A stretch of DNA of 64,000 nt from Schmidtea polychroa (Eukaryota): contig CM097888.1 in NCBI GenBank assembly GCA_044892525.1, forward strand, positions 2,294,001-2,358,000, given 5' to 3'. Under the pieces are notes generated by a model. The model worked only from the letters and a program-made list of their open reading frames with translations, was not told where the DNA came from and did no database searches. Each line of letters starts with the position of its first letter. Within the stretch, counting starts at the first letter, position 1. The translations under genes were made by a program, and so were the position numbers. This document shows, piece after piece, positions 41,450 to 47,646 of this stretch.

Positions 41450-42531
41450 AATGACTTCTGAAATGTTTTATTAGAATATTTTAATATATCATTGCTATGT
41501 TGGGCCAAGCTTCGAGAGTATTGCAAAACCGGTTAAGAATAAATAAGGGGGATAAAATAAATTGCACGAAAAGCGCGAAAAATAGAAGAACAAATAAAAT
41601 TAGATAAACATAACAGAAATAAAAGGAATAAAATAACAAATGAAAACAATAAAAGATGAAAAACAAGATGAGAAAAGAAAATAACGCACCACACATAATA
41701 GCATAAGGAAATAAAATAATAAATGTAAGAAAAATAAACCAGAAATTAGGAAATAAAATAAAAATAAATCATTATCAAATAAATACATAAACTAATTAAA
41801 ACAAAAGTTAGACTATAACCAAAAAACAATAAAGTCACAGGAAAAACAGGAGGGAAATAATAAAAAATAGAAAAATAAATAAAATAATAATAAAAATAGA
41901 GAAAAGTCATTAAAATATACCTTATTGCATTAAAAAACATAAAAATAGTAATAAATAATAATATTACACGCAAGTCGCGTCCTGATTGGACAGAAAATAA
42001 TATAAAAGAAACGGAAAATATCTGTAGAGTACCACTTTTTAACCAAACTCTACAGGTAAATTTTAATTTGTTAACCACCACTTTTTAACCAAACTCTACA
42101 GCAAACTTCATTAAATCAATTCGCAAGGACTATACTCAAGAAACACTATTCATACAGTTATCGAGATTTCCACAGAGCATTAATATTATTCACCGGGAAC
42201 AGAAAACTTCAACCGATATTTTTCCAATACTCTCGAAGGAAACGTATTGTAAGTATGATGCATATTTTAATTTTTAATTTTGTTTTTATATAAAGAGGAA
42301 TGAACAAAATAATTTATTTTTAATAAATTTTTCTATTTGATTATAAAGATGTTCTCTCTCTCCATGCGACCGGCGACGATGTCGTCTGGAATTCGGACAT
42401 GATGTAGAAACTCGAATGAGTGGGCTAGATGATACTCGTAGACGAATAATGAAAATAAAGACATCGAATCGAGAATTTAAATCCCACTGAGAATGGAAAA
42501 TGAAGTGCACGAGGATTATCCCGACTTTGTA

Positions 42532-43390
42532 TCATGTTCGAGTTTCAGACGGCGTGGTCGCCGGGTAACTATTTATTTTATATAATGATAATATTTCGTT
42601 AATATTGCATTGTCGGACGAATTTATTGTTTATTTGCGATGATTGTTTTCGATGAAGAAGATAGAAATCTGAGGGGATGGAATCGTCCTTCCTGACGGTC
42701 CAAGTGCGGCGGCAGCGATGCATGCTGTGCTTGGGTGAGTCAGGAGGGGTGAGGACATCTGGTGAGCGATGTGGATACATAACAATGGAGAATCTTCCAC
42801 CGAGTGATATCGGCGATCGGCATAAGAAAATTTCCATCCATAGGAGAGACAGAATTGCGACAATTGATACAAATAATAACTCCGTTTGAAACTTTCCGGA
42901 AAAGACGTGAGACAGAATCTCCATTTCCACGTACTGCCGTACTTCATTAGGCTCCAATTCGACATGATTATTGGTTTTAAGCTTTCGAATATCGGTGAAT
43001 TGATTATGAAGGGATCATAGTTTTCGGCTGCAAAAGAAAATCCCAGACAGATCTGCATAAACTATCTCTAGTTTTTCTTCAGGGATTTGAACTACTAGAG
43101 TATTAGCGAGTACATCCATCCTCTCGGCTTTAATCAGACTCTACAATCAATCTTGACAGGCCTTATCGTCGCTAATAGTAGAACCTATACGACACATGAA
43201 AATCATCCGATAGTGAATGTAAATATCCACGACAGCCTTGAGAAAATCTGAGGTCAGCTAACTAGGGAAATTATCTTTTAGTCTTGGCCTGCTGGAAATT
43301 AGTTGTAGACAACCGATAAGCATTCGCCTGAGCACATCCAATACCCAGATAACGAGGCCATGAAGGTCCAGTAACGGCGCTTGATAAAGA
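42532..43390 (-). pseudogene. Decayed antisense ORF-A of element copy B (~280 codons, few stops)
   Basis: One minus frame is mostly open from APLLDLHGLVIWVLDVLRR to ..PATTPSETRT, with about four stops. Confidence 0.45.
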
Positions 43391-43730
43391 TTTGCAGAAA
43401 GTAAACATCGAGTAGACCTTATAATCACTCACTCATAATTCCAACTTGGCAAGGCGATAATAAAACTCCAAATTCGTAACACTGTGTTGATAGATTCTAA
43501 CTGAATATTTCTATTATCAAATCAGGTATCCACGCCATGTATAATCACCAGTATGTCCAACGATGCACACAAGCAAGCTAATCCACCGTAGTAACGCAGG
43601 TAGGAAAATGACATAATTGTATAACAGTGTGAGACTGTGTGTGCGAACATAGTCAGCGACATCGAAATCATGTAGTGAGATTAATTCCAACGAGAATTGT
43701 CTAGCCGTGGGTAAGAGTAATACCGGCATA

Positions 43731-45718
43731 CACCTAACCGCGAAATATAACATTATCTATAATCTAAAAAAAAATCAATAAATATATATTATAGGAACAC
43801 ACAAACTTACCTGTGTGTAGAAATTTAATGCCGCGAAATTTAACATATTTATTATAGGAATCTAAAAAGTGAGAGAAAATAATTAGGCATACAAGCACAG
43901 CACACATAATGAAAAATACATACAAAATTAAGTAAAGTGTTTTTCATGCGAAATTCAGATTGATTAACATATAATTAACATATCAATATTTTTAAATTAT
44001 TTAAAAAATTATGTACAAAAAAACTTTTGAATCAGATTCCGACTGCTCTACGTTGAGCTTTAGGGAAAAAGAAGTAAATACATCGTAAGATTTAATTATA
44101 AAATGATTTAGAATATAAAATTTCTTTAGATTTACAGATATTTCACAGGACACAGTGGCTTTTTGCGAAGTTGAAGATCTGACAATGTAAGATTTATTCA
44201 TTAAAATATAAAATATTAAAATATTTTATAGTATAACAGATATTTCTTTGCGTGAAGGTACCATTTCAAATATTGAAGAAGGTCCTTCGACAACTTCGAA
44301 TTTTCAGAAAAAAAATCGCAAATCGTAAATTTTAATAAATTATTTTAACAAATTAATATTTTCAAAGGATTACAGAAATAGACAAAATTCGGCTCATTAA
44401 TGCATTTGAAAATGGGGACAATTATAAAGAATTTGGAAGATTGCTCGGAATCCCCAAAAATTCAATTATTTCAATAATTTACAAATATAAGAAATATGCC
44501 GAAATTACAAAAGGAAAAAGAAGTGGCAGAAAACAAATTATTTCAGAAGAACAGGGAAATAATTTGTTGGATTTTGTCGAAGCCAATTTTTATGCAACGT
44601 TAGAAGAAATGCGAATTTTCCTGTTACAACAAAATTGCTCGGCATCCACAACTGCTATTTCAAGATTTCTAAAAAATCACTTAATAACGGTTAAAAAGGT
44701 AAGACCATGTGTGGAAGCAAGAAATTCAGATCGCGTACTTCAAATCCGAATGGAGTATGTCACACGCTTTCTCGAAGAAGTCTGGCGAGATAAAAATCTC
44801 GTTTATATTGATGAATGCGGCTTCAATACGTGGACTACACAAACCTATGGAAGGAAGAAAAAAGGAGAAAGAATATACTCCATAGTTTCAAATAATCGAG
44901 GAAAAAACATGTCATTTCTGTTAGCAATAGGTGTGAAAGGTGCAATTCATCACCAATTAATTGTAGGATCCTACAAAAAGGATACCTACCAAAATTTTAT
45001 TAATGAATTAAGTATAAAATTGAATGGGACAGGATACCGTCTCATTCATGACAATGCTTCAATTCATAGTGGAGCAATTTCTCCGAATAATTATATAGAA
45101 CACCTACCACCATATAGCCCATTCCTCAATCCAATAGAAAGCGTGTTTAGTAAAATCAAATGCAGCATCAGAAAAGTAATATCAAGGACAAATGGATTCA
45201 GTTCAATGTCCTTTCCAAGCAGATTTGACATCGTCAAAGAAGCCATCGAAATGGAGCTGCAGAAAGAAGAATATAAAAATTTAAAAAACTATTTCATTCA
45301 TGTACGCCGATTTTTCCCTAAATGTATTAAAAAAATAAATGTGTATGGTGATTACTTTATTTATAAATATAAAAATATTTAACTTACATTTTAGCGAAAT
45401 AATTCCATATTAATGCATAAAATATCATAAATTTCCTAAAAAAACACCTGAAATTTAATTATTAATATATTTATAAATGATAAATTATAAATGATGACTA
45501 ACAGTAATATTTAAGTACTTGAATAATGATCTCATAATTATATAAAATCAAAATTCAAGTCCTAAAAATTACTTCAATTCAAAAACTTACCTTAAAACTA
45601 TTTTTGAAATATTGAAAAAATGAAATTAAGTTAACATTGTCATATAATTGGTGACTCACCTCAGGTGGTGTGCACACCAACTTATATTATAGACAATGTT
45701 AACTTTCGCGGTTAGGTG
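43731..45718 (+). mobile_element. Complete Tc1/IS630-like DNA transposon, 33-bp TIRs, TA TSD
   Basis: TA|CACCTAACCGCGAAATATAACATTATCTATAAT ... ATTATAGACAATGTTAACTTTCGCGGTTAGGTG|TA (30/33 match). Confidence 0.95.
44011..45382 (+). CDS. Spliced Tc1-like transposase, 412 aa predicted (exons 44011-44084, 44130-44186, 44232-44324, 44368-45382)
   Basis: Three GT-AG introns of 45, 45 and 43 nt join into one open frame (RKS|ITEIDKIRLINAF..HTH..YIDECG..HDNASIH..PPYSPFLNPIES). Confidence 0.85.
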
Positions 45719-46339: not shown

Positions 46340-47107
46340 ATGACTACACCGATCCAGTCCAGAAAAGATCTCCGTCCATGCTTCTCATGTTCGGACAAAA
46401 ATGCAGACATCGCACAGTTGCACTTGTACATTGGGGAATTAAAGAAGAGAATTGACCTCTATGAGGGAACGTGGTTCTCCCCGCCACAGATGAAAGAGGA
46501 GAAGAGTAAGATTCTACGTCTGGAGCACTGCCGTGACAGTCTCCTGGAAGAGAGTAGATGCCAGCGGCTAACCATAAAAGCCCAATCAGAGGCACTACAT
46601 AAAGTATACTCCGAAGCAGAGATAGCGAAGCGAGTTCGCGAATACCCGATACAAGAGGGGACTAATGTGTTCCCCGGGCACCACCAATCAGCTGAAGCAT
46701 CGTCAGTAACTAATTGCAAGGGGCATGGCCCACAATTGCCACCAATTCTCGCCCCAGTTCTCTCTGGTTATCGGCCTATGACTGGTGGACCCTCGGACCC
46801 TATCTTGACTCCAATACTCGGGCCATACCTCACTCAGCCCCCAATAGCAACTACCCTTCCCCATCGAAAGCGTAAGCGGCCGACGCGCTCAGAAAAGAAT
46901 CAGAAGCGCAGAAATGCCATGGCTGCGCTTGAGGCATCATTATTCGCAGCCAAATCAACAATCCAAGAAATTACCGTTAGTCATTGCATTCCTACCAAAG
47001 AAGTGTTCCGGGTAGTCCCGGCCGGCAGTATCAAATTCCTCGAGGATCGCCGGTTGCCCGTTGACATCGACGAGATGCTCGCGGAAGGAGAAGCATTCTC
47101 ACAGTGA
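46340..47107 (+). CDS. ORF-B of element copy B: 255 aa, CxxC + coiled coil + basic segment
   Basis: Intact ORF, homologous to 9291-10040 (LRPCFSC.DKNA, EGTWFSP, EHCRD, QSEALHKVY). Confidence 0.8.
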   Translation: MTTPIQSRKDLRPCFSCSDKNADIAQLHLYIGELKKRIDLYEGTWFSPPQMKEEKSKILRLEHCRDSLLEESRCQRLTIKAQSEALHKVYSEAEIAKRVREYPIQEGTNVFPGHHQSAEASSVTNCKGHGPQLPPILAPVLSGYRPMTGGPSDPILTPILGPYLTQPPIATTLPHRKRKRPTRSEKNQKRRNAMAALEASLFAAKSTIQEITVSHCIPTKEVFRVVPAGSIKFLEDRRLPVDIDEMLAEGEAFSQ

Positions 47108-47420
47108 GTTTTCTCTCAAGTCTCGATTCCCTTACCACCATGAACGAACTCGAAGGAGTGACATTATTTTTGTACAAGTCGTTAATGTTTTGTGTCTACT
47201 TACATAATTTTGAGTGTATTTTGATGTTTTGTTCTAATACAGCTGTTCGCTTGTTTTCCGATTGCGTTAATTATATGTATGATTGGCTATGATTGAATTT
47301 CAGGAGTGGAGGACCCTGAAGGAGTAGCAGGAGCTTGAATGTCGTCCCCTTTGGACCAGGGTGGACCGAACGATGCGCGAAGCGTGGGTAAGTCCTTCTA
47401 AGGCACCGTTGGACCCGTAC

Positions 47421-47527
47421 CGAGAAAAGGGTTAGGAGTAGTCCTAAGGCAGGGGCTCACCTGCTAACTCTTTCCGACCCGTGTGAGCAGCACCAACGTG
47501 GAACATCACCACGGGCTCATACGTGGG
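47421..47527 (+). ncRNA. Two-domain structured RNA motif, copy B
   Basis: GGGTT-AGGAGTAGTCCTAAG-GCAGG-GGCTCA-CCTGC-T-AACTC, then GTGTGAGC-AGCACCAA-CGTGG-loop-CCACG-G-GCTCATAC. Confidence 0.75.
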
Positions 47528-47646
47528 AATATGCGAATGATCATGTGGAGTATGTAGGGGGAGTGCCTAAGCGAAATGATGAGGTTTGATAGGCGTGATA
47601 GAAATGCATGTATACTTTTCTCTCCCCCACCTACGCCCAACAGCTA

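Follow-up and report, generated by a model that had tools for sequence, protein, structure and literature searches.

Gypsy-type retrotransposons with long terminal repeats (LTRs) can be very large in planarians, where Burro elements exceed 30 kb with internal regions of up to 25 kb and, by implication, multi-kb LTRs; Ogre LTRs reach 6.5 kb (PMC6431247). Protein-mediated export of unspliced RNA is described for HIV (human immunodeficiency virus) Rev and for the Gypsy-type element Cer1 of C. elegans, whose spliced mRNA encodes CERV, an export protein with a proven role (PMC10309623). Here we describe element B, a mobile-element insertion in Schmidtea polychroa, and its distant relative element A. 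Both lie in the stretch of 64,000 nucleotides that was analysed (GenBank assembly GCA_044892525.1, contig CM097888.1, positions 2,294,001 to 2,358,000 of the forward strand; called the window below and numbered from its first letter). An empty site and a target duplication are routine evidence for a mobile element. The value of this locus lies in the cargo, an unclassified protein family under selection within a presumed LTR, beside an invariant hairpin.

Boundaries of element B and the empty target site

Element B is 6,145 bp long, begins with TGTTGGGC, ends with GCCCAACA and has GCTA on either side (Table 1). An initial annotation, made from the letters alone, had read these junctions together with an uninterrupted counterpart of the same locus elsewhere in the window. 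Its junction strings and the empty site were recovered exactly at both loci, and pairwise alignment of the full with the empty block gave colinear flanks, ungapped at the site, with a single GCTA in the empty block, confirming the proposed 4-bp duplication. Over about 100 nt of left flank, 93 of 97 columns are identical with no gap across the site; the right flank is likewise ungapped (46/50 and 86/98 identical columns). BLAST aligned 41110-41502 with 56482-56872 (84% identity), 47643-47869 with 56865-57094 (87%), 47868-49047 with 57606-58834 (93%) and 49617-49878 with 58811-59078 (93%). Judged from the window composition, a second GCTA has a chance probability of 0.003 and an 8-bp inverted end one of 4e-6. 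Together, these results confirm that 41498-47642 is a real mobile-element insertion of about 6 kb, and its boundaries are secure at the assembly level. Public sequencing runs carry no evidential weight here: of the 20 listed rows, 14, from 5 studies, cover all or some of the stretch, at best a share of 0.57, and no RNA run is among the rows listed. The two blocks also hold private insertions, one of ~570 bp near B (49048-49616) and one of 513 bp in the empty block (57094-57605), the latter with a 10-bp tandem array.

The annotation had further described a single integration event next to a secreted-protein paralog. This holds for the outer element, but the stretch records two events, since a transposon of 1,990 bp is nested in B; the outer insertion came first and the Tc1 element later. 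The nested element has the marks of Tc1/IS630, namely a TA duplication, inverted repeats (arms of 39 nt including TA, or ~37-bp repeats, 90% identical) and a transposase with HTH plus DDE_3 domains. Tc1/IS630 transposases have DD34E spacing; here 28 residues separate the second D from the E. The other transposase of the window (27728-28111) has 34 residues at this place, and a decayed relative at ~13.4-14.25 kb is too broken to show whether the 28-residue spacing is a family trait. As for the neighbouring gene, B does lie ~45 nt downstream of a gene from a signal-peptide-bearing family, but this gene copy is a truncated 3' fragment. A target preference for GYTA, which had been suggested from the duplications of B and A, found no support: any pair of random 4-mers has a probability of 0.05-0.09 of matching at 3 or all 4 positions, and the pattern had been fitted post hoc on two sites. 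Target consensus sequences of integrases are usually symmetric; GYTA is asymmetric.

Table 1. Coordinates of the features of elements A and B and of their surroundings (window numbering).
Feature	Position	Strand	Basis or remark
Left target-site duplication GCTA	41494..41497	+	single GCTA at empty site
Right target-site duplication GCTA	47643..47646	+	sequence read at junction
Empty target site, single GCTA	56865..56868	+	inside related block 56482-59078
Element B, probable solo LTR	41498..47642	+	4,155 bp without nested transposon
Promoter-like ATTGG (reverse CCAAT), then TATA box	41985..42008	+	motif match; follows A-rich 5' part
ATTAAATCA, poly(A)-signal-like	42110..42118	+	motif weak in AT-rich DNA
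Candidate splice donor GTAAGT	42249..42254	+	motif; AT-rich intron-like stretch next
Nested Tc1/IS630 DNA transposon	43731..45718	+	TA duplication 43729-30, 45719-20
Nested transposase frame, HTH_SB + DDE_3	44357..45382	+	Pfam match
Accessory open reading frame P0001, 255 aa	46340..47107	+	directly after polypyrimidine-AG acceptor (46339)
Conserved donor-like GTAAG(T/A)CCTTCTA	47388..47400	+	common to A
Predicted bulged hairpin, 6-nt loop, 3-nt bulge	47421..47476	+	folding of A and B
Element A, TGTTGGGC..GCCCCAGCA, 4,123 bp	6478..10600	+	putative boundaries, no empty site
Accessory open reading frame P0002 of A	9291-10040	+	counterpart of P0001
3' fragment of host gene family member	41111..41449	+	relatives 55912-56785 (+) and 61312-62232 (-)

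Accessory protein and predicted 3' hairpin of elements A and B

Without its nested transposon, B is nearly equal in length to A. The latter is flanked by GTTA (6474-77 and 10601-04), and its 3' end, CAGCA, deviates from the end pattern. B had been presented as a second copy of one element, a designation that applies to one open reading frame (ORF), a 39-nt motif and the layout, all common to A and B; the rest is unalignable, BLAST of A against B yielding nothing beyond ORF and motif except AT-rich noise, and the ORF products share 36-37% amino acid (aa) identity. A and B are distant subfamilies rather than copies.

The common layout starts with ATTGG/TATA at +329/+355 in A (6806-6839) and +488/+504 in B. 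A(A/T)TAAATCA follows 82 nt past the TATA box in A (AATAAATCA at 6914) and 109 nt past it in B, and a candidate GTAAG donor 244 nt past it in A (7076) and 248 nt in B. Further downstream, in both elements, a polypyrimidine-AG acceptor is followed within 0-5 nt by the ORF start. GTAAG(A/T)CCTTCTA then precedes the hairpin core by 51 nt in A (10335) and 49 nt in B, and the core lies 215 nt (A) and 206 nt (B) from the 3' end. These landmark patterns were picked after viewing both sequences; they describe a common layout and provide no statistical test. B also contains a short tandem duplication around 42031-42101 and, inside its presumed second exon, a 34-nt inverted pair (42370-42403 and 42531-42564, 82%).

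P0001 is the only long ORF of B with a counterpart in A, and both frames are intact (~250 aa). Over the 108 codons of the P0001/P0002 core, the proportion of synonymous differences (pS) is 0.91 against 0.33 for nonsynonymous ones (pN), and identity at the three codon positions is 61/68/33%, which shows the accessory ORF to be under purifying selection. Searched with a profile, 1.84 billion proteins yielded 15 matches, 14 of them true relatives; P0006 was dropped as a repetitive false match. Eleven of the 14 relatives are joined to 11 different unrelated domains, the pattern expected of a dispersed repeat that gene prediction has drawn into host genes, and the family in this way distorts gene models. 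None of the 14 carries a Gag, reverse transcriptase (RT) or integrase domain, and all 8 that were looked up are unnamed singletons. In the alignment with 12 relatives (P0005 and P0013 were left out for length), W45, P48, L68, E71, R73, Q75 and R76 are invariant and are followed by a variable linker and an arginine-rich motif. The profile of the 12 foreign relatives matches the window ORFs at 3e-23 and 2e-21, its columns being taken from an alignment that included both of them. The arginine-rich motif comprises 6-7 Arg plus 3-4 Lys per 17 aa in the window proteins and up to 12 Arg in 17 residues in the relatives. The AlphaFold2 model of P0001 (mean predicted local distance difference test, pLDDT, 68; predicted template-modelling score, pTM, 0.39) has no globular domain and consists of helices 15-41 and 49-101, which surround TWxxP, a basic helix 183-209 and an acidic amphipathic helix 243-254.

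A single-protein homolog search with P0001 gave 0/428 candidates, and a near-length search with P0007 gave 5/1,156, namely the query itself, three already-found proteins and P0019. Viral contigs yielded neither the protein (0/112 stretches) nor the motif (0 matches), and the one hit among 90 metagenome stretches, L001, was discarded, since it matched by chance over 9 residues and its contig is of bacterial type. A PDB sequence match at E 0.05 was discarded as not significant. ESM Atlas returned nothing at 0.9 or more, and its nearest named clusters, delta antigen and bZIP (0.77-0.78), fall within the chance range. Neither the ORF family nor the hairpin was described in the literature searched; Repbase reports, subscription papers and bioRxiv supplements lay outside this search and may describe them.

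The 32-nt core of the hairpin in B (47434-47465) is identical in A (10383-10414), while 20 shuffles gave at most 11 identical nt; a 26-nt part of it is present at two places of the window but in none of 100 shuffles. A and B fold alike, and in the lower stem one pair is changed on both sides (columns 58/91). Rfam gave 0 matches at the gathering score in the window, and in both 3' regions chance matches only. The core holds CTCACCTG (47456-47463 and 10405-10412), which on the plus strand resembles the 5' end of U1 small nuclear RNA. Its minus strand reads CAG/GTGAG, a splice-donor consensus; an antisense spliced transcript or a DNA site are therefore alternatives to an RNA hairpin.

Nature of the elements and proposed role

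A and B are probably solo LTRs of ~4.1 kb, one from each of two distant subfamilies of a Gypsy/Metaviridae-type retrotransposon whose LTRs are very long. Their ends are TG..CA with a TGTNR start and a short inverted match, and TGTNR is the start pattern of Gypsy LTRs (PMC2836005). In both elements a 4-bp duplication (GCTA, GTTA) directly flanks one repeat unit. Gypsy-type duplications are short and fixed, 4-5 bp, and those of BEL/Pao are 5-6 bp; a BEL/Pao LTR was rejected, the duplication of B being fixed at 4 bp by the empty site. What remains after recombination between two LTRs is a single unit that has its promoter close to the 5' end and neither primer-binding site nor polypurine tract. 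Element B has no long inverted repeat (the match consists of the 8 terminal bases) and no terminal direct repeat, and is therefore not a two-LTR element; the best local end-to-end scores are 24, against shuffled maxima of 22-23, and the inverted ends agree at 6/10 in A. No primer-binding site or polypurine tract adjoins the ends, and the flanks of B are host sequence, as the empty site shows. As regards the U3-R-U5 layout of an LTR, which includes a promoter and a poly(A) site, CCAAT/TATA and the poly(A)-like hexamer are conserved in position between A and B at the level of motifs. A Pfam scan of 19 frames, 5 of them inside A or B, detected no integrase, RT or Gag family, the nested Tc1 transposase aside. 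We propose that an integrase inserted a full-length element into the block, making the 4-bp duplication, and that LTR-LTR recombination then deleted gag-pol, so that a single LTR remained, still flanked by the original duplication. Inner LTR borders at TGTTGGG (A, 8945, behind a purine run) and CCCAACA (B, 45958) were rejected: there is no direct repeat, and these 7-mers occur 11 and 5 times in the window. B was also rejected as the 3' LTR of a Gypsy remnant at 40.5-41.1 kb, since host gene DNA lies between the two and the duplication flanks B alone.

Part of this evidence could also be accommodated by a non-autonomous DNA transposon of the cut-and-paste type, moved in trans by an integrase-like (Ginger-like) transposase and with a spliced gene as its passenger. 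Ginger elements measure 2.6-7 kb, contain introns, and show TGTNR ends and 4-bp duplications (PMC2836005). In a DNA element introns and a normal promoter need no special explanation. However, the inverted repeats of Ginger1 measure 40-270 bp and those of Ginger2 about 50-180 bp, against 8 bp here, and Ginger targets are CCGG/CCGT or RTATAY, against GCTA and GTTA here (PMC2836005). The frames scanned contained no transposase remnant of the outer element, although a non-autonomous copy could lack one, and it is difficult to see why a passenger gene should stay under purifying selection across saturated divergence, next to a conserved 3' RNA motif, unless it serves the element cycle. This origin is unlikely. 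A self-standing LTR-derived unit of 4.1 kb, mobilised as RNA by a helper RT and integrase and having no full-length parent, would account for two ORFs that are intact despite saturated synonymous divergence, for a unit with its own promoter-like region, gene and 3' structure, and for 14 relatives devoid of Gag, RT or integrase domains. But recently formed solo LTRs would have intact ORFs too. Terminal redundancy is absent, and neither a primer-binding site nor a polypurine tract adjoins the ends, so that the ends of such a unit could not be restored by ordinary reverse transcription. We regard this unit as distinctly improbable.

A different doubt concerns the empty block, which the initial annotation took for a paralog. 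It is likely to be one, but N gaps on both sides (55625-55849 and 59217-59468) confine the block to a piece of ~3.4 kb, so that it may instead be allelic. The insertion would then be real and its empty counterpart the other allele, assembled as a haplotig (an insertion polymorphism); alternatively, a junction could be misassembled. The short piece between gaps and the 99% identity of some parts (372/376) are consistent with a haplotig. Elsewhere, however, the blocks differ by 4-18% and carry different private insertions (513 bp and ~570 bp), the sequence upstream of 41110 is unrelated, and a misassembly would not yield a perfect duplication plus inverted ends. We judge these possibilities very unlikely, and the boundaries of B hold whether the empty block is a paralog or an allele.

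If A and B are solo LTRs, transcription of the LTR would start from the CCAAT/TATA promoter within the first 0.5 kb, and splicing would yield an mRNA for a nuclear basic protein with a helical oligomerisation core, an arginine-rich motif and an acidic amphipathic tail. This accessory protein would act on the element's own RNA: it may bind the bulged hairpin and thereby promote export or licensing of genomic RNA, as Rev/Rex or CERV do. The hairpin lies just downstream of the conserved donor-like site and would therefore be kept only in unspliced RNA. Given the LTR reading, Rev-like export through hairpin binding is the likeliest single role, which we put forward tentatively; a Tat/Tas-like transactivator comes next, with a smaller chance, and other roles share the remaining probability. 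The broader idea is doubtful, namely that a flatworm Gypsy-type family independently evolved a complex-retrovirus module in a 4-kb LTR, with a spliced gene for an arginine-rich oligomerising protein and a cognate hairpin that export or license unspliced genomic RNA. If true, each solo LTR would leave the host genome with a complete regulator cassette that could act in trans on the remaining full-length copies.

Several observations count against the solo-LTR reading or the role built on it. In the 64-kb window we found no full-length element in which two such LTRs enclose gag-pol. With a promoter at +350 to +500, R+U5 would measure ~3.6 kb and contain introns, an unusual arrangement, and no poly(A) hexamer was found near the 3' end of B, the last AATAAA standing at +4627 of 6145. 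The folding z-score of the hairpin is weak in B (about -1.1) and moderate, from -1.4 to -2.4, in A, whose minus strand folds as well (-2.55); with two sequences only, the 32-nt core is devoid of covariation. On the protein side, neither P0001 nor P0002 matched Pfam, REV included; a REV match in 1 of 15 proteins scanned stayed below the cut-off (19.1 vs 22 bits). Foldseek against BFVD and PDB found no fold match at E<=0.001, and by these comparisons the accessory protein family appears unclassified. The strict leucine-rich export-signal pattern is absent from both window C-termini, and a search for longer fused forms of P0007, itself a weak one, gave 0/553.

Surroundings and comparison with known systems

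The host gene family next to B has no Pfam match, and its relatives at 55912-56785 and 61312-62232 have hydrophobic N-termini; the former changes frame near 56133-56162, through either a frameshift or a short intron. Upstream of B, a Gypsy-integrase-like remnant stands where the host gene should have its 5' part: decayed pieces at 40500-41090 and 17742-18185 resemble Gypsy integrase by eye, and the first of them occupies this place. The host gene fragments 41111-41401 and 56483-56776 diverge by 18%, their non-coding flanks by 1-12%; nonsynonymous (dN) and synonymous (dS) divergence of 0.217 and 0.178 over 97 codons suggests neutral or slightly positive evolution. In keeping with a eukaryotic host, the window as a whole is rich in AT and contains intron-like stretches along with Tc1-type transposases and a non-LTR reverse transcriptase; a tRNA scan of it found none. 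The Tc1/IS630 element at 26976-28488 has inverted repeats built of 22-nt subrepeats. A non-LTR retrotransposon (29051-35888) contains a 2.2-kb tandem duplication of 97% identity, both copies of which break at the same place of the RT motif, and minus-strand frames at 2547-6285 with Ulp1-protease and zinc-finger matches are probably the 5' part of another non-LTR element.

Among DNA transposons, Ginger1 and Ginger2/Tdd resemble A and B in TGTNR ends, 4-bp duplication, size and, presumably, introns (PMC2836005); A and B differ from them in having no long inverted repeats, other targets and no integrase-like transposase. Likeness to Burro/GYPSM1 and to Gypsy/Metaviridae in general extends to TG..CA ends with a TGTNR start, a short duplication, the multi-kb LTR scale and accessory ORFs, and A and B probably come from the same host group as Burro/GYPSM1. 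The difference, compared by description only, is that the accessory gene lies here inside the presumed LTR, an arrangement that the section consulted on Burro does not mention (PMC6431247). A possible closer relative is GLT2, a Schmidtea mediterranea transposon used as a probe (PMC8532177). On the reverse strand, 400 of the 485 letters of this probe (its first part), inspected by eye, appear to contain an acceptor-like site and then a frame with TWxxPE in a helical context, which recalls the invariant W and P of the accessory family; the downstream invariant residues of that family are not evident in these letters. GLT2 is presumably of Repbase origin, and from this lead the accessory ORF family may already be catalogued in Repbase.

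With HIV Rev/RRE, HTLV (human T-lymphotropic virus) Rex/RxRE, HERV-K (human endogenous retrovirus K) Rec/RcRE and Tat/TAR, elements A and B would have in common a putative arginine-rich RNA-binding motif, a predicted helical oligomerisation segment and a predicted bulged RNA hairpin within one element. The window protein differs in having no significant sequence or fold similarity to these proteins and no clear export signal, and its role would be analogous at most. Export of intron-containing genomic RNA by LTR retrotransposons has a known mechanism for few elements, and CERV was the sole Gypsy example found in the literature search. CERV is a small nuclear-type protein, with a coiled coil and with basic and export-like motifs, and an analogous role is what we propose for the window ORF. 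CERV is a protein of 517 aa with globular M and G domains, encoded by exons common with gag and with no obvious homologs outside nematodes (PMC10309623). The window protein, in contrast, has ~250 aa, is predicted to be helical and disordered, and is encoded inside the putative LTR. In a planarian-type host, a protein and a hairpin that form so compact a pair would open the RNA-export question to direct tests.

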